NCBI GenBank assembly: GCA_947425245.1
Contig: CANDYU010000001.1
Location: forward strand, 63,028-127,027
Reading direction: 5' to 3'
Length of the DNA: 64,000 bases
DNA from: an uncultured Candidatus Saccharibacteria bacterium
GTDB lineage: Bacteria; Patescibacteriota; Saccharimonadia; Saccharimonadales; Saccharimonadaceae
In this document: positions 1 through 38,957 of the stretch, piece after piece
How positions within the stretch are numbered: position 1 is the stretch's first letter
Layout of the letters: each line of letters opens with the position of its first letter
Notes under the pieces: model-generated
The model's database searches: none
The model's input: the letters and a program-made list of their open reading frames with translations, nothing else
Told to the model about the DNA's origin: nothing
Translations under genes and position numbers: made by a program

Positions 1-641
1 TGGCGGAGAAACTCATCCACAGCGTGCGACGAGCCGGGGAGTTCGGGGTTGTTATAGTCGTGGACGAGCATGACTCCTTGGGGCGAGAGGCGTGGCGAGA
101 CTAAATGAAGACTGGTTTTAATGGAGCCATAGAGGTCACCATCAAGAAAAGCGAAGGCAATTTTAGAAGGGAGATCTTTATCAGTAAGTTCGTTGAACCA
201 GGCTTTTTTTACGATGATGTTATGAAGACCAGCTTTCTTGATCTTGGTGATTACTTCACGCTTAGTAACGAGGAGCTCGCCGGCCTGGAAGTTTTGGCCA
301 GCACCAGAGGAATCTTCGGAAGTCTTAGTGGGGAGACCGGCGAATGAGTCATAAATCCACAGTTTTTTAGCAGTTTTCCACTGATTTTCCACAGGTTTTC
401 CACAGGATGAAGAGGAGAGCTGATAATTCCCCAGTTCGGGGTCGGACGGATTAGAGGAGTCAGAGGGGCTGGACCTGGTGGTAGCTGGAAAATGTTGGGC
501 AAGCAGTTTACCGAGGAGGATTGAGGTGTCGCCTCGGTAACAGCCTAATTCGACATAGTCTCCTTCTATAGTAAGGGTTTTGGTGGCGAGTTCGAGGATA
601 ATTTGGGTCTCCTCGGTGGTGACTTGATCGTTTGTTGACAT
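1..641 (-). CDS. Class I SAM-dependent methyltransferase, TylF/MycF (macrocin-O-methyltransferase)-like; C-terminus lies beyond the window edge
   Basis: My own reverse-strand translation from the ATG at 639-641 is open to the window edge, so it is absent from the ORF track. Motifs: EGDYVELGCYRGDTS, LWIYDSFAGLP, AFAFLDGDLYGS, GVMLVHDYN. A low-complexity insert of about 45 aa carries three TTTTCCAC(A/T) repeats. Confidence 0.6.
   Translation of the reverse strand, partial: MSTNDQVTTEETQIILELATKTLTIEGDYVELGCYRGDTSILLGKLLAQHFPATTRSSPSDSSNPSDPELGNYQLSSSSCGKPVENQWKTAKKLWIYDSFAGLPTKTSEDSSGAGQNFQAGELLVTKREVITKIKKAGLHNIIVKKAWFNELTDKDLPSKIAFAFLDGDLYGSIKTSLHLVSPRLSPQGVMLVHDYNNPELPGSSHAVDEFLR
375..405. 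repeat. Three DnaA-box-like 9-mers (TTTTCCACT, TTTTCCACA, TTTTCCACA) at 11-bp spacing inside the methyltransferase ORF
   Basis: Direct reading: starts at 375, 386 and 397. The same 9-mer occurs in the dnaA flanks. Confidence 0.6.
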
Positions 642-676
642 TTTTAGTAATCTGTGATATAATGAAGTTAATAGAA

Positions 677-10727: not shown

Positions 10728-10750
10728 TCCGCCCTTCGGGGCGGATTTTT
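10728..10750 (+). terminator. Rho-independent terminator after nusA
   Basis: TCCGCCC-ttcg-GGGCGGA followed by TTTTT. Confidence 0.75.
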
Positions 10751-10949
10751 GGTAGGTTTTTGGGAGTGGGGTTTTGGTAGATTTTTTGCAGGTTTTTGTC
10801 TGATTTGTCAATGTTGATAAAAGTTGGGTTTTATTTCGGAATGTTTACACAGATGTGGAAAAGTAGAAGAAGAGTTGTTCGGTTTTTGATGGTTTGGGAA
10901 ATTAAGGGTTGGACGGAAGTGACGTATTTTGGGTATTTTAGTATTGAAG

Positions 10950-12671: not shown

Positions 12672-14316
12672 GACTGTGCTTAGGGGATGCGAAAATGATG
12701 AGAAGAAGAGGTGGAAGGAGATAGATATGGAGGGCGTTAGGCAGGCCGGCGAAGAAGTTAAGAGTAACAAGATAGGCGAGAATGAGGCTAATGAGGAGAG
12801 GGAGGGCGGGGTTGGACCAGAAGAGGGATTTTGGTGGGCGATTGGAATGGCGAAGCGGGAGGGGCGAGAAAGCCACGATCAGTACAAAGATAATAATGAT
12901 AATTCCGATGAGGCCGAGCTCGAGGAGGAGGCTGAAAAATTGGTTTTGGACGATTTCTTTGGGGCTGGTGACGCGATCGGGAAAGCGGGCGTGCATGGCA
13001 CTGCCAGCACCACCTAGGCCAACGCCGAATAGGATACTGGCGGGGGTGTCAAGCCAAGTGTCAATAGCGGTACCAGTGAGATTGAGGCGAATGTTGGTTG
13101 ATTCGGCGACGTAGCCATCGAAAATCGCAGAATCGGTGGGGGTGGGGCCGGAGGAATCTGACGATTCGGGGGGATTTTCTAAGGAGCTGGATGAGTTCGT
13201 GGGCTCAGCGTCAGATTGAGCGGAGCTGCGAGGACGAAGATCAATAAGGCCAAGTGAGAGCTGGTGAAGGGACTTGGCGGCACCGGAAAGAAAAGAGTCG
13301 TGAGTTGGGCCGATGACGGTGAAAAAGCCTTGGACAGTAAGAGTAAAGAGGAAGGAGAGGACAGGGATAAGAATGAGGGTAAGGATGGGTCGGGCAAAGC
13401 GACGACGGTAGAGGAGAAAACAGGAAAAGGCAAAGAGAGCGATGGCATAGGCATAGATTGCTCCGCGAGAGAAAGTGAGGAAGAGGGTGGAGGAAAAGAA
13501 GAAGGTAATAAGGATAAGGAGGGCGGTAGTACGCTTGGAGGAGTGGTGGCAGGGGGAGACGAGGAGGTAGAGTGCCGTCAGGGTTGGGGCGAGGAGGAGG
13601 TTGCCCATGAATTGGGGCTCGATGGCAAAACCGGAGGGGTGCGGAAAGCCGAAGGACTGAGAAACACAACCGAGACAAAGAAGGCTGGATTCGCGACCGA
13701 TACCGGCGAGGTCGAGAAAGCACTGGATCCAGCAGAAGAGGCAGACGAGTGCACTAAAGAGAAAAAATGATTTTAAGAGGAGACGGGAGAAGTTTTTGGG
13801 GGGAGTGAGGAGGGGTAGAATGTAAATTAATGAGAAAATGGCAAAGAAGAGCAGCCAAATAATGCCGGCGGTGAGAATGGCTCGGAGGGGATTGGGCGAC
13901 CAGAAGGCGGAGATAGTGGCGTAGAACGGGAATAGGGAGAGGAGAAAGAACCGGCGATCAGAAATGCCAGTAAAATTGGTGGTGAAGAGTTTTTTGAGGC
14001 TGAGGAGGGAGGATCTGGCGATACTTTGAGGATTTTTAGTACTTTGAAGACTTTTTTTACTTTGAAGTTTATCGGCACTTTGAAGATTTTTGGTACTTTG
14101 AGACCGGTTGGGGTTTTGTAGGAAAAGTGCGATGAAACTGAGAAAATCGAAGATGACTAGCCAAATGAGCGGAAGAGAGAGCTCGAAGTTCATGGTTTGG
14201 TTGGAACCGAGGCGGATTATGGGATAGTAAGAAAAGAAGAGGACGCCCGGAAGAAGGAGAATCAGGAAGAGGATGGCTTTTCTAAGGATTGATGATGGTT
14301 CTTTGGTTGGTTTCAT
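12661..14316 (-). CDS. O-antigen ligase/polymerase-like (Wzy_C family) polytopic membrane protein
   Basis: 551 aa with at least 10 TM segments and a LTFSRGAIYAYAIALF-type Wzy_C signature. It lies in the glycan locus. Confidence 0.7.
   Translation of the reverse strand: MKPTKEPSSILRKAILFLILLLPGVLFFSYYPIIRLGSNQTMNFELSLPLIWLVIFDFLSFIALFLQNPNRSQSTKNLQSADKLQSKKSLQSTKNPQSIARSSLLSLKKLFTTNFTGISDRRFFLLSLFPFYATISAFWSPNPLRAILTAGIIWLLFFAIFSLIYILPLLTPPKNFSRLLLKSFFLFSALVCLFCWIQCFLDLAGIGRESSLLCLGCVSQSFGFPHPSGFAIEPQFMGNLLLAPTLTALYLLVSPCHHSSKRTTALLILITFFFSSTLFLTFSRGAIYAYAIALFAFSCFLLYRRRFARPILTLILIPVLSFLFTLTVQGFFTVIGPTHDSFLSGAAKSLHQLSLGLIDLRPRSSAQSDAEPTNSSSSLENPPESSDSSGPTPTDSAIFDGYVAESTNIRLNLTGTAIDTWLDTPASILFGVGLGGAGSAMHARFPDRVTSPKEIVQNQFFSLLLELGLIGIIIIIFVLIVAFSPLPLRHSNRPPKSLFWSNPALPLLISLILAYLVTLNFFAGLPNALHIYLLPPLLLIIFASPKHSLRP
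14022..14110. repeat. In-frame tandem repeat of about 18 bp, roughly 5 copies (TACTTTGAAG-core), inside the ligase-like gene
   Basis: Direct reading. It encodes QSTKNLQSADKLQSKKSLQSTKNPQS. Confidence 0.65.
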
Positions 14317-15686
14317 AGTTTCGTTCCCTCCTGGGGTTTAAGGTTTTGTGATTTTGATGATTGTTCGGAAAATGCGGAGACGAGTTGGGAGATGTTGGAG
14401 CGGAAATGTTTGGAGGAGAACTTCGTGGCGGTGCTTGAGACGGCGGAACGGCTGTAGTCGGAGGATTGGAAGGATTTAAGGGCTTTCGCGAGGGATTCGG
14501 GGGTTTGTTTGGCAAAAAAGAGGCCGTTCTTCCCTGGCTGGATGATGTCTTGGCTGCCGCCGGCTTTGTAGGCGATGACTGGGCAGCCGGCAGCAAGGGC
14601 TTCAACTGCAGCGATACCGAATGGTTCGAGGCTGGGGAAAATGTAGGCGGTGGCGGATTGGAGGTATTGCGAGAGCTCTTTAGCGTCGAGCCAAGGAATA
14701 AAATGAATAAGAGGGGTGGCGAGAGTCTCGAGATGATGATGTTCAGGGCCGTCACCAATGACGACTAGGCGTTTCTGGGCCAAAATGCAACCCTTAATAG
14801 CAAGGTCGACGCGTTTCCAGGTTACCTGGCGACAAGAAATGACGAAGTATGGCTCATTTCTAGAGACCGTCGTAGGAGTGGATTCGGTACTCCTGTGGAA
14901 AAGTTGTGGAAAAAATGTGGAAAAAATGTGGATTTTTGTGGAGAAATTCGGGTTTTTGGTGGATTTCTTGTGGATTTCTTGTGGATTTTTGTGGAGAAGT
15001 TCGGATTTTTGGTGGATTTCTTGTGGATTTCTTGTGGATTTTTGTGGAGAAGTTGTGGAAAAGGGTGAGAAACGACTAATATCAACAGGGGGAGCTATGA
15101 TTTTGGCGTCGCGGTGGTAAAACTGTTTAATCTGGGCGGCGGCGTAGCTAGAAATCGTCACGAATTGGTCGGGTCGCTGGGCGGCTCGGAAATCGGCCTG
15201 GCGAAGAGGCTTAATAAGGCATTTCAGGGCGAGGCGGACGAGAGGATTCAGAAAGCCGAAACCGGGATTTTTGATGTATTGGTCGTACATTTGCCAGTAA
15301 TATTGGGTGGGGACATGGCAATAACAGATGTGATAATTGGTCTTCACAGCCTTCGCCTCAGCACCCGTGACCGAGATGACTAGGTCGTAGTGGCTGAGGT
15401 CGAGATGCGAGAAATAGAGAGCCCGAAGAGGGCCAAGGAGCTTGCGAAGGCAGGCAGGAAAGAGGTTGAGCCAACCGGTGCGGACGATGGCTGTATTAAA
15501 CCAGGCGATTTTCTTGGGGCGATATTGAGAAGTGTAAATTGGGGCGTCGGGATACATCTGGTGTAGTTCGAGGAGGACTTTTTCGGCACCGCCAGGGGTA
15601 GTGAGCCAGTCACAGACGAGAGCGATGGAGGGGTCGGGGGTTGATTTTTTGGCAGTTTTGGTCGTTTTAGAGCGAGATTTGGACAT
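14313..15686 (-). CDS. Glycosyltransferase family 4 (GT-B fold) with a repeat-encoded insert in the interdomain linker
   Basis: N-terminal LVCDWLTTPGGAEKV and C-terminal EPFGIAAVEALAAGCPVIA motifs. The start overlaps the downstream gene (ATGA). Confidence 0.8.
   Translation of the reverse strand: MSKSRSKTTKTAKKSTPDPSIALVCDWLTTPGGAEKVLLELHQMYPDAPIYTSQYRPKKIAWFNTAIVRTGWLNLFPACLRKLLGPLRALYFSHLDLSHYDLVISVTGAEAKAVKTNYHICYCHVPTQYYWQMYDQYIKNPGFGFLNPLVRLALKCLIKPLRQADFRAAQRPDQFVTISSYAAAQIKQFYHRDAKIIAPPVDISRFSPFSTTSPQKSTRNPQEIHQKSELLHKNPQEIHKKSTKNPNFSTKIHIFSTFFPQLFHRSTESTPTTVSRNEPYFVISCRQVTWKRVDLAIKGCILAQKRLVVIGDGPEHHHLETLATPLIHFIPWLDAKELSQYLQSATAYIFPSLEPFGIAAVEALAAGCPVIAYKAGGSQDIIQPGKNGLFFAKQTPESLAKALKSFQSSDYSRSAVSSTATKFSSKHFRSNISQLVSAFSEQSSKSQNLKPQEGTKL
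14894..15062. repeat. Array of 14 same-orientation DnaA-box-like 9-mers ((T/G)GTGGA(A/T/G)(A/T)(A/T)) with 10-11 bp phasing, including a 53-bp higher-order duplication, in frame within the GT4 gene
   Basis: Box starts read at 14894, 14905, 14916, 14927, 14937, 14958, 14969, 14980, 14990, 15011, 15022, 15033, 15043 and 15054. Confidence 0.7.
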
Positions 15687-18375: not shown

Positions 18376-19674
18376 TCAGGAACGAAAATGGGCATAAAGT
18401 CGCCAAGCGAGAGTGAAAACAGGGAGGCCAAGGTGGAGGGATTGCATGGCCAGTAGGTCACGCTTGGTGCGAAGGGGGTTTTTTAGGATGTCGGCTTGGT
18501 GGGATTTGAGATAGGTGACGGTTTCTCGGCGGATTTTACGGAAATTGGACTTTTGTTCGGGGGTTTCGGGCTTTGCGAAGATGATCTGTCGCAAGATGCT
18601 GAAACGGGCGTGCATGCGACGAAGTTTTAGGGCATTTTCGAGGGTTTTGAAGCTTTCAGTAGAGTTTTGGGTGGAGAGCTTTAGGTCTTCAGGGTTTTTG
18701 GCGGAGTTTTGGGGTTTTTCAGGGGTGGAATACTCCCAGTCAGTAGTATTTTTCGGGTTTTTCGACTGACTGGTAGGGTTTAGTTCCCAGTCGGTAGTAA
18801 TTTGGGGATTTTGCGACTGACCGGTAATATGGTAAAAAATGGCGATATTATCACACATTTGGTCGGTTAAGTCGATAAGGTCGAGCTTCGCGGGACGGAA
18901 GGTTTGGTGGATGATTGAGCTGGGATTTTGGTAATATTTATAGAGTGGCTCGGGGAGAAAGGCGACCTGGTCACACTGGAGGATGAGGCGGTAAGTCGTT
19001 CCGACATCTTCGTAGAGCTTGCCGACAGGATAGCGGACCGTCTCGAAGAGTTCGGCTGCGTAAAGCTTGCCACAGGCCATGAGAGTGAAATCGCGTTCAC
19101 AAAGCATGTTGATGAGACAATTGGCTTGGTCGAGAAGGTGGGGCTGGGGAGCGGATGATGATTGCGGGTTGGTGGCTGGGTTGCCGGCGAGAGGCCGAAC
19201 GAAGCTTCGCTCGGAGCCGTCAGGAAAGACTTCGGCGAAAGAACAGATGGAAAGCTTTAGGGGAGGAGTTCGAGACTTGGAAGTGGAGTCTTGGCCAAGC
19301 TGGGTAATAAAGAGGGACTGATAAAGCTTTTCGATCATGGTGTGGTCAAGAAAATCATCGGAATCGACAAAAGTGACATGACTGCCACGCATGAGGCTGA
19401 GACCAGTATTACGGGCGGCAGAGAGGCCTTGGTTTTTCTGGTGAATAACCTTGATACGAGAGTCTTTACGGGCGAGTTGGTCGCATAATTCCCCGCTGCG
19501 ATCAGTCGAGCCGTCATTGATGAGGAGAATCTCGAGATTTTGGTAAGTTTGTTTCATGACAGAATTCAGGCAGCGTTCGAGGGTGGATTCGACATTATAG
19601 ACGGGGATGATGACGGAAATGAGGGGACGGTGATTCGGGCTTGGAGAGGCTTGAGATTTGGAGGATTTTGGCAT
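18376..19674 (-). CDS. Glycosyltransferase family 2 with a repeat-containing insertion
   Basis: Motifs ISVIIPVYNVE..LINDGSTD..DSDD. Confidence 0.8.
   Translation of the reverse strand: MPKSSKSQASPSPNHRPLISVIIPVYNVESTLERCLNSVMKQTYQNLEILLINDGSTDRSGELCDQLARKDSRIKVIHQKNQGLSAARNTGLSLMRGSHVTFVDSDDFLDHTMIEKLYQSLFITQLGQDSTSKSRTPPLKLSICSFAEVFPDGSERSFVRPLAGNPATNPQSSSAPQPHLLDQANCLINMLCERDFTLMACGKLYAAELFETVRYPVGKLYEDVGTTYRLILQCDQVAFLPEPLYKYYQNPSSIIHQTFRPAKLDLIDLTDQMCDNIAIFYHITGQSQNPQITTDWELNPTSQSKNPKNTTDWEYSTPEKPQNSAKNPEDLKLSTQNSTESFKTLENALKLRRMHARFSILRQIIFAKPETPEQKSNFRKIRRETVTYLKSHQADILKNPLRTKRDLLAMQSLHLGLPVFTLAWRLYAHFRS
18734..18832. repeat. Tandem duplication of about 50 bp, in frame within the GT2 gene
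   Basis: TCCCAGTC(A/G)GTAGTA..CGACTGAC(T/C)GGTA occurs twice. It encodes QSQNPQITTDWELNPTSQSKNPKNTTDWEYS. Confidence 0.6.
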
Positions 19675-20951: not shown

Positions 20952-21941
20952 CTATTGCCAGAGATTTTCATAGGCCTTAGCAACCTCTTCTGGACTGCCT
21001 TCGGCGGCAACTTTGCCTTGTTCAATTAAGATAGCACGGTCGCAGAAGCGGCGGACATTCTCCATAGAGTGGGTAACGAGGATGACGGTTTGGCCGCCGT
21101 GGAGACTGGCGAAATAGTCGTTACATTTCCCCTGGAACTCGGCATCGCCAACCGCTAGAACTTCGTCAAGGATGAGAATATCACCACGTGCTCGGATGGC
21201 GATAGAAAAGGCGAGGCGGACTTGCATACCAGAAGAGTAGTTCTTTAGTTTGGCATCCATGAAAGGCTCTAGTTCGGCGAAATGAACGATTTCGTCGTAC
21301 ATGGCGTCCATTTCTTTGTTGGAGAACCCGAGTAGAGCACCGTTTAGATAGACATTTTCACGGCCGGTTAATTCGGGGTTAAAGCCAACGCCGAGCTCAA
21401 TGAACGGGACGAGGGTGCCGTTGACCTCAATTTTGCCGCTGTCGGGGATGTAGATTTGGGCGAGGAGCTTTAGTAAAGTAGACTTACCAGAGCCGTTGCG
21501 ACCGACAATGCCGACGAATTCGCCCTTTTTTACCTCAAAATCAATACCGCTCAACACCTTGTGTTCAGTGTAACCTTTAACGCCTTTGAGCCAATTAAAA
21601 ATGGCTTGTTTGAGGCCAGAGGCACGCTCAGTGGGGAGATGGAAGCTTTTATGGAGACCAGTAACTTTAATAGCGTTTTCGGAGTTTTGCACTGGATTTT
21701 TCGCAGGTTTTTGCACAGAATCTTGGGCTTTTTGCACAATATTCTCGGAGTTTTCCTCAGGATTTGCACAGGTAGATGATTGATTATCCACAGGATTTCC
21801 ACTAATTTTATCTTGTTTTGCACAAGTTTTACACAGATTTTCCACAGGTTCAGTAGAATTAATGGCTTGTTTGGCTATGCCTATTGATTTTTTTTGGTTT
21901 TTGTGATATAATGGAGATTTGGGGTGTTTTTTCTTAGACAT
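20952..21941 (-). CDS. Polysaccharide/teichoic-acid export ABC transporter ATP-binding protein (Wzt/TagH-like) with a repeat-encoded N-terminal extension of about 90 aa
   Basis: Walker A GRNGSGKST, signature YSSGMQVRL and Walker B ILILDE. Confidence 0.9.
   Translation of the reverse strand: MSKKKHPKSPLYHKNQKKSIGIAKQAINSTEPVENLCKTCAKQDKISGNPVDNQSSTCANPEENSENIVQKAQDSVQKPAKNPVQNSENAIKVTGLHKSFHLPTERASGLKQAIFNWLKGVKGYTEHKVLSGIDFEVKKGEFVGIVGRNGSGKSTLLKLLAQIYIPDSGKIEVNGTLVPFIELGVGFNPELTGRENVYLNGALLGFSNKEMDAMYDEIVHFAELEPFMDAKLKNYSSGMQVRLAFSIAIRARGDILILDEVLAVGDAEFQGKCNDYFASLHGGQTVILVTHSMENVRRFCDRAILIEQGKVAAEGSPEEVAKAYENLWQ
21685..21846. repeat. Array of about 10 DnaA-box-like 9-mers (TTTT(G/C)CACA variants, including a perfect TTATCCACA at 21784-21792), largely 11-bp phased, inside the N-terminal extension of the ABC ATPase
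   Basis: Boxes read at 21685, 21709, 21730, 21762, 21784, 21795, 21816, 21827 and 21838. Confidence 0.65.
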
Positions 21942-22762
21942 TAGACCTCCTCGGCAAAGTGCTTAGATTTTTTACGGAAGAACAGGGAGGCGGCGATAAG
22001 CAGGACGATAACGATGAGAAACGGAACGAGGCGAAGTAAGGGGTTATTAATGACGCTCCAGGTCGTCATAGTGGCATCAGTGATGAGGGTATAGCGGACG
22101 TCTTGGATGACCTGGGCTATAGGGTTTAGCATGATAATGCGGCCAGCTAGAGCACCGAAGCTGCCGGAGCTGAGAACCATGGAGAGGGGGTAGATGATAG
22201 GGACGGCATAGAAAAGGGCTTGGATTAGGACGTCCCAGATCGAGGTAATGTCGCGATATTTAACATTGATAGCACCGAGAAGGAAGGAGATACCGAGCGA
22301 GAAGAGATAGAGCTCAAGGATTAAGAATGGGACGAGGAGCCAGGTCCAGGTCGGGGCGACGCCGTTGATGAGGGCGAAGATGATAATAACACAGAGGTTG
22401 ATGGCGAGGTTGATCAGGGCGGTAGAAGTGGCGGAGACGACGATGATGTATTTCGGGAAGCTGATTTTACGGATCAGGTCGCCGCGACCGACGATTGAGT
22501 TAATACCGAGGCCGGTACATTCAGTAAAGAAGTTCCAGAGGACGGTGCCGGTTAAGAGATAGACGGGGTAGTGGGGGATGTCGTTGCCGAAGTTGAGCAT
22601 CTTAGCAAAGACGATGTAAAGGATTGCAAACATAAGGAGGGGGCGTAAGACAGCCCAAGTGTAACCGAGGATTGAACCTTGGTAGCGGAGCTTAAAATCG
22701 GTTTTGACGAGTTCGCCCAACAAAATACGATTCTTTTGGCAAAGTATATTCGGAAATCCCAT
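21941..22762 (-). CDS. ABC-2 type polysaccharide export permease (Wzm/TagG-like)
   Basis: 273 aa with 6 TM segments and the LRYQGSILGYTWAVLRPL motif. It is translationally coupled to the ATPase gene. Confidence 0.85.
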   Translation of the reverse strand: MGFPNILCQKNRILLGELVKTDFKLRYQGSILGYTWAVLRPLLMFAILYIVFAKMLNFGNDIPHYPVYLLTGTVLWNFFTECTGLGINSIVGRGDLIRKISFPKYIIVVSATSTALINLAINLCVIIIFALINGVAPTWTWLLVPFLILELYLFSLGISFLLGAINVKYRDITSIWDVLIQALFYAVPIIYPLSMVLSSGSFGALAGRIIMLNPIAQVIQDVRYTLITDATMTTWSVINNPLLRLVPFLIVIVLLIAASLFFRKKSKHFAEEV

Positions 22763-36989: not shown

Positions 36990-37037
36990 ATTAATTATCT
37001 TTCTCTATTAACAAATTCTTGTCCTAGTATACATTAG

Positions 37038-37190
37038 ATTTCCACTTTTTTCAAGGAGTTTTCCACATATTTAATAGGTATATCGTGCTTATGGTGGAAA
37101 AGTAGTTCCCTGTTTTGGATAGCTAAATTATAACATGTTTGAGGAAAACGGGGGAAACTGTGGAAAAGTCGGGAAAAGTTTGATATAATC
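37038..37190. promoter_or_regulatory. rpmH-dnaA intergenic DnaA-box cluster and dnaA promoter (possible oriC part 1)
   Basis: Boxes ATTTCCACT (37038), TTTTCCACA (37059), GGTGGAAAA (37093) and TGTGGAAAA (37159). A TGaTATAAT extended -10 lies at 37181-37189. Confidence 0.6.
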
Positions 37191-37219
37191 AGGGTAAGTT
37201 AAGGAGGAGTTAAGGGGTC

Positions 37220-38614: not shown

Positions 38615-38957
38615 TTGGATGGTGGATTTTTGTAAGAATGGTTGGGTTGATAGGGGTGATTTGACTTTTTTAAGTTCTAGTTTTTTAAAAACCGAACGCT
38701 TGTTCGGGTGGGTTGTGGATAACATGTGTGAAAGTGTGTGGGGAAATTCGTGGGAAACATGTGTGAAAGTTTCCACATGTGGCGGTTTTTATGAACTTTT
38801 GCACAAATTTTGGGGAAAAGTTTGGGTTATTCGCAGGATTGGTGGAAAGTTTTACGGGTGGATTTGCACAGTAAATTACCCCTGTTTTTATGGTAGTTTT
38901 GCACATTTTCCACAAAGCCTACTACTACAACTACTAAATATTTAGGAAGGAAGAAAA
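38615..38957. promoter_or_regulatory. dnaA-dnaN intergenic region with DnaA boxes (candidate oriC)
   Basis: A perfect TGTGGATAA at 38714-38722, GTTTCCACA at 38769, GGTGGAAAG at 38841 and TTTTCCACA at 38906, ending in an AT-rich stretch. ORF 38565..38945 merely reads through these boxes. Confidence 0.6.

Follow-up and report, generated by a model that had tools for sequence, protein, structure and literature searches.

A DnaA-box array read in frame by a wzt-type transporter gene of an uncultured Saccharibacteria bacterium

An array of ten co-oriented DnaA boxes lies within the reading frame of a wzt/tagH-type ATP-binding cassette (ABC) transporter gene in a 64,000-nt stretch of DNA from an uncultured Candidatus Saccharibacteria bacterium (the window, in whose numbering all coordinates are given). 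The sequence is present in mouse-gut metagenomes, and its relatives are likewise labelled Candidatus Saccharibacteria. Comparison with orthologous genes supports the conclusion that the entity conserved here is a DNA word and not the peptide that it encodes. The reading that we favour, and hold to be reasonably probable, is that of a DnaA-box cluster kept by selection on the DNA, accommodated in frame in a dispensable disordered tail of the Wzt protein, and acting as a DnaA-binding cluster outside the origin. Our confidence is higher for one component of this reading, a DNA-level array of DnaA boxes under selection, and lower for another, a role in titrating DnaA.

The array and the word that it repeats

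A box was counted wherever a 9-mer had at most one mismatch to TTWTNCACA. The sequence-only reading of this DNA had noted about ten boxes between 21685 and 21846, and this count is borne out: ten are found on the + strand, against a chance expectation of 0.18 per 162 bp per strand, and none on the − strand of the same interval at that threshold. Six are exact, starting at 21709, 21730, 21784 (TTATCCACA), 21816 (TTTTGCACA), 21827 (TTTTACACA) and 21838 (TTTTCCACA), and the one at 21784–21792 is indeed the E. coli-type consensus box that had been pointed out there. Four more, starting at 21685, 21697, 21751 and 21762, carry one mismatch. The 9-mer at 21795–21803 (ATTTCCACT) makes an eleventh with two mismatches; of the 11-bp steps described earlier, the series 21816/21827/21838 is thus exact, whereas the pair 21784/21795 has one degenerate member. 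Successive box starts are separated by 12, 12, 21, 21, 11, 22, 32, 11 and 11 bp. Five of these nine steps leave gaps of 2–3 bp (21685/21697/21709, 21751/21762 and 21816/21827/21838), so that the array contains double boxes, that is, two boxes of the same orientation 2–3 bp apart, and the remaining gaps amount to one or more further helical turns. In all, the window has 21 occurrences of TTTTSCACA where 1.5 would be expected. The array spans wzt codons 32–86, where the coding strand reads TGTGNAWAA; NPVDNQSSTCANPEENSENIVQK is an example of the peptide that would result.

Whether selection acts on the word or on the peptide can be judged from eight extensions, those of the window and of seven array-bearing orthologous wzt genes. 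Together they hold 52 exact boxes, all of which read TGTGNAWAA on the coding strand, with none in the opposite direction. They are distributed over frames 2, 0 and 1 as 39:8:5, and the same word is accordingly read as V-E/D/Q-N/K, C-G/A-K or L-C/W-K-T, depending on the frame. Codon choice follows the word as well. Valine is encoded by GTG in 55 of 71 cases (77%) in the extensions, compared with 14% of 310 cases in wzm and the nucleotide-binding-domain (NBD) core, both read from that same strand, in which codons ending in C dominate, and with 18% in the other genes of the window. GAA (85% vs 53%) and GAT (80% vs 50%) are preferred in the extensions, CAA and AAA are enriched too, and a T precedes GTG in 43 of the 55 cases. 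When the extensions are aligned on every GTG, only T-GTG-S-A-W-A-A carries information, with next to no constraint on its flanks, and the two tolerant positions are the W and the N of the classical DnaA-box consensus. The box spacing is periodic at 10.7 bp (vector strength 0.93) and hardly so at 3 bp (0.24), and exact 9-mers outlast a divergence at which the synonymous sites of the same gene no longer follow.

A broader set of 109 homologues is consistent with this picture. Extensions range from 10 to 150 aa, and the more box-encoding peptides they contain the longer they are (r = 0.86), at about 8 aa for each box. These peptides number 480 in 7082 extension residues vs 39 in 26126 core residues, a density some 45 times higher, and 62 of the 109 homologues have at least three of them. 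A relative that lacks the extension has no boxes there. Between species, the peptide, the number of boxes and their positions turn over while the DNA word stays; the peptides of orthologues do not align, yet the word persists in them. The sequence-only reading had proposed that the DNA motif is what is conserved, and had suggested a comparison of orthologues as a check. Codon choice, the use of three frames, the helical periodicity, the confinement of information to the 9-mer and the orthologues themselves all speak for its proposal. Neither outcome that it had named as refuting was found: orthologues retain the motif in their DNA, and the peptide is not known to have a function. As a separate observation, several short homologues without arrays (P0046, P0059–P0061, P0078 and P0113) have in common an N-terminal motif, Q/H-C-x-D-N-V-H/C-T-N.

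The same tests bear on a peptide-level explanation, in which the tail is selected as a low-complexity segment rich in K, N, S, V and E, serving as a spacer or interaction region, and its likeness to DnaA boxes is a coincidence. A tail that appears to be translated, is kept in most homologues and has a similar composition across species would suit such a role. It is difficult to reconcile with one DNA word read in three frames, with codons fixed against the usage of the gene itself, with a periodicity of 10.7 bp instead of 3 bp, or with the reversed word in a GT4 glycosyltransferase gene of the window, which yields unrelated peptides. On the codon, frame and periodicity tests this explanation was rejected, and we regard it as very improbable.

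The gene that hosts the array is well defined. Pfam ABC_tran matches residues 130–261 of its product, the ABC domain begins at about residue 89–95, and the closest solved structures are Aquifex aeolicus Wzt (E = 1e-59), TagH/TarH and mycobacterial RfbE. Together with the adjoining gene for an ABC-2 permease, this identifies the product as a Wzt/TagH-type exporter ATPase. The gene glf (UDP-galactopyranose mutase) comes next after wzt and glycosyltransferase genes lie nearby, in a glycan cluster of 12–36 kb. In alignments with solved Wzt/TagH structures, the match begins no earlier than about residue 97–124; it was therefore correct to place the array in the first 90 or so codons, a segment that has no canonical counterpart. 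This N-terminal extension has no match in Pfam, and in an AlphaFold2 model built with 22 homologues residues 1–83 have a predicted local distance difference test score (pLDDT) below 50 and lack secondary structure, the fold starting at residue 89. On this model, the tail is predicted to be disordered.

A start of translation downstream of the array had been considered in the sequence-only reading, and this idea finds no support. At the wzm–wzt junction of 10/10 loci (the window and nine orthologous loci), GGAGG-N4-5-ATG follows or overlaps the wzm stop codon, and this coupled start is kept whether the extension has 10 or 150 residues. Internal starts were sought and rejected: the first in-frame ATG does not occur before residue 211, and the GTG codons inside boxes have no Shine-Dalgarno sequence. 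Because a start coupled to wzm, with a strong Shine-Dalgarno sequence before it, is placed upstream of the extension in ten loci, the array is, to judge by the gene layout, almost certainly translated. A 249-aa homologue with the same GGAGG-ATG junction has no array hidden upstream, and all array-bearing homologues are in frame. Contigs from transcriptomic libraries run unbroken through wzm, the junction and the array, these libraries being unstranded and open to DNA carry-over. In the frames in which they are read, boxes in the orientations used contain no stop codon: TGTGGATAA, which contains TAA in frame 0, is found only in frame 2. Rfam has no match in or adjoining wzt. A conserved peptide at the head of the tail was also considered as evidence of translation and was dropped, since the head itself looks conserved as DNA (see the antisense element below). 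The features discussed in this and the following sections are collected in Table 1.

Table 1. Position of the array, its host genes and related features in the window
Feature	Position	Strand	Details
DnaA-box array	21685..21846	+	10 co-oriented boxes (six exact, four with one mismatch)
Perfect E. coli-type consensus box TTATCCACA	21784..21792	+	coding strand GTG GAT AAT (Val-Asp-Asn)
Three exact boxes at 11-bp steps	21816..21846	+	coding-strand frames 2, 1 and 0 in turn; peptide PVENLCKTCAK
wzt/tagH-type ABC transporter ATPase, 329 aa	20952..21941	-	nucleotide-binding domain from about residue 89
N-terminal extension of Wzt, residues 1 to about 89	21675..21941	-	disorder predicted; length differs between homologues
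wzt start ATG	21941-21939	-	overlaps wzm stop (TAATG); preceded by GAGGAGG at 21952-21946
wzm, ABC-2 type permease partner	21941..22762	-	translationally coupled to wzt
Antisense sigma-70-type promoter-like element	21884..21912	+	-35 TTGATT (21884-21889), 17-bp spacer, TG (21904-21905), -10 TATAAT (21907-21912)
Sister array, GT4 glycosyltransferase linker	14894..15062	-	opposite orientation relative to its gene; TTTTCCACA on coding strand
Sister array, TylF-like methyltransferase insertion	353..404	+	3-4 boxes; same site arrayed in relatives L033, L035 and L047
rpmH-dnaA gap	36990..37219		TTTTCCACA boxes at 37059 (+) and 37159 (-)
dnaA	37220..38614	+	all four domains; domain IV signature KDHTTVMHG
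dnaA-dnaN gap, presumed oriC	38615..38957		TTATCCACA (38714, -), TTTTGCACA (38797, 38897), TTTTCCACA (38906) and 8-of-9 matches

Stability of the repeats and arrays elsewhere

Simple-sequence contingency loci of host-adapted bacteria carry repeats that are not a multiple of three in length within surface-glycan genes. In an analogous way, slipped-strand mispairing at an 11-bp repeat could switch wzt on and off and cause phase variation of surface glycans. A unit of 11 bp does not divide into whole codons, the arrays sit in surface-glycan genes, and the extension varies in length between species. The wzt repeats differ from contingency loci, however, in being imperfect and in showing no length polymorphism in reads. 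In the contigs of eleven public runs and in raw reads at about 20x from a related strain, the array differs by substitutions only, neither indels nor joints reach 5%, and all homologues examined are in frame. The missing length variants in reads and contigs argue against phase variation, and a contingency locus is in our view hardly credible.

The array might instead have no function. It would then be a by-product, neutral or selfish: origin boxes might, for instance, have seeded an 11-bp minisatellite that slippage or gene conversion went on to spread, and that is tolerated only where the protein is disordered. Such an origin would account for the fast turnover of box number and position between species, for the fact that some relatives dispense with arrays, for their restriction to segments that tolerate them (a tail at the N terminus, a linker between domains and an insertion in a loop), and for degenerate T/G-rich remnants at 18640–18820 and 10746–10800. 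It fits less well with flanks and spacers that are unrepeated, so that only the 9-mer recurs, with the low match of 74–80% between array units in Tandem Repeats Finder, with exact 9-mers that persist beyond synonymous divergence in the same gene, with variable positions that follow the DnaA-box consensus, and with the constant length within and between strains. Since the units are imperfect and their flanks free, the boxes are not recent copies of one unit, and a recent tandem duplication was rejected for the same reasons. All considered, we judge a functionless by-product to be unlikely.

Two kinds of repetitive DNA nearby are worth recording in their own right. The T/G-rich low-complexity stretches just mentioned resemble decayed boxes (TTTTGCGACTG, TTTTTCGACTG and TTTTTTGCAGG), the first lying in a GT2 ORF (open reading frame; 18376..19674) and the second just past the nusA terminator. 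At 14022–14101, an ORF resembling Wzy_C/O-antigen ligase contains an in-frame 18-bp tandem repeat of 4.4 copies, which encodes K-x-L-Q-S units and is not box-like.

Besides the wzt array, two sister arrays are found in the window, one in the linker of the GT4 glycosyltransferase and the other in a segment inserted into the TylF-like methyltransferase. The orientation of the wzt array relative to its gene had been described as opposite to that of the GT4 array, and so it is: the coding strand reads TGTGNAWAA in the former vs TTTTCCACA in the latter. The methyltransferase arrays of relatives lie 39–51 kb from dnaA where this distance is measurable. Near the methyltransferase array, a perfect consensus promoter, TTGACA-17-TGaTATAAT, extends across the start codon of the methyltransferase ORF at 635–663 (+) and is directed into the 3' end of an acetate kinase gene that lies on the opposite strand. 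A divergent promoter of this kind also precedes the methyltransferase gene in relatives L033 and L047.

Similar arrays are also widespread beyond this window. Three boxes in succession with 11-bp steps were sought in 185,579 species genomes. This search, which gives no taxon frequencies, returned at least 119 loci. Among the matches listed, most lie in DNA with short ORFs that is evidently non-coding, from many phyla (TGTGGATAACC-type arrays), and for 6 of the 9 loci labelled as Saccharibacteria the open frame around the match exceeds 200 aa. Phased arrays of co-oriented boxes are therefore a common bacterial architecture, and the unusual part is their placement inside genes. Three-box arrays within ORFs of 284–548 aa were also seen among the matches listed in L074 (Oligoflexus), L099 (an uncultured bacterium), L122 (Hydrogenedentota), L124 (Riflebacteria), L023 and L032, none of them Saccharibacteria; other phyla may thus have in-frame arrays as well.

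The dnaA region, the antisense element and possible roles

The window also carries rnpA–rpmH, dnaA, dnaN and recF. Its DnaA is full-length and canonical, with B. subtilis DnaA as the best structural match (E = 8e-76), and we take its domain IV signature, by reference to the E. coli domain IV–DNA structure, to be the base-contacting motif. The word types TTTTCCACA, TTTTGCACA and TTATCCACA are common to the gaps that flank dnaA and to the wzt array. By its gene order and its boxes, the dnaA–dnaN gap resembles an origin and is presumed to be one; three relatives share this layout, their oriC gaps carrying TGTGGAAAA, TGTGCAAAA and TGTGTAAAA. The wzt array lies 15.3 kb from dnaA and the box-rich dnaA–dnaN gap. 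Synteny beside dnaA is conserved, and both here and in two relatives the distance between arrays and dnaA is 15–51 kb. Two side observations concern these gaps. Upstream of dnaA, a promoter-like site, TGGAAA-17-TGnTATAAT, at 37159–37190 (37161) has its −35 element overlapped by the box at 37159–37167, a box-over-promoter arrangement that is the classic layout for autoregulation. In relatives, gene callers place an ORF of 111–116 aa across the dnaA–dnaN gap (L129 11373–11723, L130 11346–11684 and L131 11364–11699), which is probably spurious, since boxes that contain no stop codon would leave such a frame open.

On the reading of the array as a non-origin cluster, DnaA, probably in its ATP form, would bind the boxes cooperatively along one face of the helix, in the manner known from double boxes and low-affinity arrays in E. 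coli. Cooperativity is suggested because five of the gaps are 2–3 bp long and the others keep the boxes on one helix face. The wzt array and the GT4 and methyltransferase arrays would act jointly, holding or inactivating DnaA near the dnaA/oriC region and thereby restraining re-initiation, as the DnaA-box clusters (DBCs) of B. subtilis and datA of E. coli do. The array may have come to sit in coding DNA because a compact genome is short of intergenic space and because the box in either orientation is stop-free in most frames.

Several points weigh against this reading. The binding of DnaA to the array is something that we infer from sequence, and a local regulatory role alone would fit the same anatomy. 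Arrays are optional, given that 20 of the 109 wzt homologues have no box at all, and one relative combines an ordinary oriC with an array-less wzt. Among strain single-nucleotide polymorphisms, two of six sites fall inside boxes, which make up 61% of the array, too small a number to show protection. Finally, the GC skew at third codon positions (GC3 skew) on the + strand is positive, from +0.13 to +0.81, in 35/35 genes tested, in either orientation and on both sides of dnaA, and it has the same sign in the loci of relatives (L129–L131, L001 and L002). The switch of GC3 skew that an origin should show is absent at dnaA and throughout the 64 kb. The term "origin-proximal" is therefore unproven for the array, and the functional origin may not be at dnaA.

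Just downstream of the array, on the strand of the boxes, lies the antisense promoter-like element. It is the other-strand reading of wzt codons 10–20 (P-L-Y-H-x3-K-K-S-I), and P/S-L-Y-H-x3-K-K-S-I is the sole conserved peptide of the tail. In 6/6 orthologues with this head, TTGAyT-17-TGnTATAAT stands at the same place. The hexamers match the consensus at 10/12 positions in the window and at 11/12 in five orthologues (L001, L003, L125, L126 and L127), in which the element occupies wzt codons 5–19, and all of these have TGn. The element has the hallmarks of a promoter, namely hexamers 17 bp apart that are kept in orthologues; the spacer is always 17 bp long and its sequence is variable. The codons that form it are rare ones: TTA is used in 6/6 cases vs 12%, TCA in 6/6 vs 14% and ATA in 5/5 vs 7%. 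Only 12 sites of such promoter quality occur on both strands of the window (128 kb), and most of those checked are found just upstream of gene starts. Read along the box strand, the array lies 14–37 bp upstream of the −35 hexamer, and in the window the nearest box ends 37 bp upstream. A putative RNA starting near 21919 would cover the ribosome-binding site of wzt and the end of wzm.

This arrangement makes local transcriptional control by DnaA a serious alternative, or else a further function. DnaA bound to the array would then regulate the wzm–wzt exporter and not replication, either by gating the conserved antisense promoter or as a roadblock to RNA polymerase reading wzm–wzt. The presence of the element in every head-bearing orthologue, its construction from rare codons, the scarcity of equally good sites in the window and the co-orientation of all boxes are in its favour, and some B. 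subtilis DBCs do regulate adjoining promoters (Okumura 2012, PMC3245932). However, L002 and L128 have arrays without the promoter element, and some heads accompany only one or two boxes. In the sequence read, there is no such promoter right beside the GT4 or methyltransferase arrays, the + strand promoter at 635–663 being 231 bp from the latter. AT-rich rare codons near starts are moreover common for translational reasons, and the contigs from RNA libraries show coverage of the locus only, with no strand resolution. Control of the exporter alone is thus a possible explanation, and one that we consider clearly less probable than a non-origin DnaA-binding cluster.

The array and the antisense promoter might also form a single module. 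DnaA loaded on the ten phased boxes would gate an antisense RNA over the wzt ribosome-binding site, so that in this tiny epibiont the state of replication initiation directly sets the export of surface glycan, while the boxes, with those of the GT4 and methyltransferase arrays, buffer free DnaA. We regard this combination as doubtful, somewhat more so than local control by itself. If it were true, a peptide, initiator-binding sites and an opposite-strand promoter would be three layers of information in about 260 bp.

Known non-origin DnaA-box clusters are initiation regulators that have been described as non-coding elements. Here, a clade of Saccharibacteria with reduced genomes keeps such clusters in translated sequence, where the motif dictates tens of residues in several envelope proteins. 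If DnaA binds them, they would show clearly how codes can overlap in nature, with regulatory DNA written through protein. They would then also be a likely main brake on initiation in organisms that are not known to have controls of the SeqA/Hda type (these were not searched for in this genome), and a warning that the "low-complexity linkers" of candidate phyla radiation (CPR) proteins can be DNA elements. They offer a direct handle on how replication is controlled in bacteria that are difficult to cultivate.

Comparison with known transporters and DnaA-box clusters

The Wzt protein of the window resembles the ATPases of A. aeolicus Wzm–Wzt (PDB 6AN5, 6OIH and 7K2T) and of TagH/TarH in its core (E = 1e-59 to 1e-47) and in having an ABC-2 permease partner. 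In the solved Wzt/TagH proteins, by contrast, some 30 residues precede the aligned block and such an N-terminal tail is absent, and the window Wzt, unlike that of A. aeolicus, has no C-terminal carbohydrate-binding domain. As for the array within that tail, a literature search found no paper mentioning DnaA boxes in Saccharibacteria, and a search for intragenic DnaA sites found only examples of single sites from chromatin immunoprecipitation (ChIP) in E. coli.

Two E. coli systems share features with the array. According to Okumura 2012 (PMC3245932), datA is a non-origin box cluster near the origin that lowers the initiation potential. The wzt array is likewise a non-origin DnaA-box cluster, but datA is non-coding and has about five boxes, whereas the wzt array has 10–11 boxes in coding DNA; datA also needs an IHF site, and none was sought or seen at the wzt array. 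At datA of E. coli, DnaA-ATP is hydrolysed in a process known as datA-dependent DnaA-ATP hydrolysis (DDAH), for which the IHF site is required. The second system is that of double boxes and of the arrays in oriC. Low-affinity arrays in E. coli oriC were reportedly treated by Rozgaja in 2011. In vivo, binding of E. coli DnaA requires boxes of the same orientation 2–3 bp apart (Stringer, Fitzgerald & Wade 2024, PMC11317965). The wzt array has five gaps of this kind; the E. coli sites, however, are at promoters or in oriC, and the arrangement in wzt spans 162 bp of an ORF.

The DBCs of B. subtilis are clusters of boxes outside oriC, mostly within tens of kb of it (Ishikawa 2007, PMC2533591; Okumura 2012, PMC3245932). 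Those proximal to oriC restrain initiation, and the same has been predicted for bacteria without SeqA/Hda (Okumura 2012, PMC3245932). Their effects on promoters are positive for sda and negative for dnaA, ywlC and yydA, and all six clusters are intergenic (Okumura 2012, PMC3245932). The wzt array departs from them in lying in frame in a translated ORF, where it is not intergenic and dictates a peptide, and in being more tightly phased, with all its boxes co-oriented. Binding and a phenotype have been shown for the DBCs and are proposed for the wzt array. What it has in common with them is many boxes within a few hundred bp that match the origin boxes of the organism itself.

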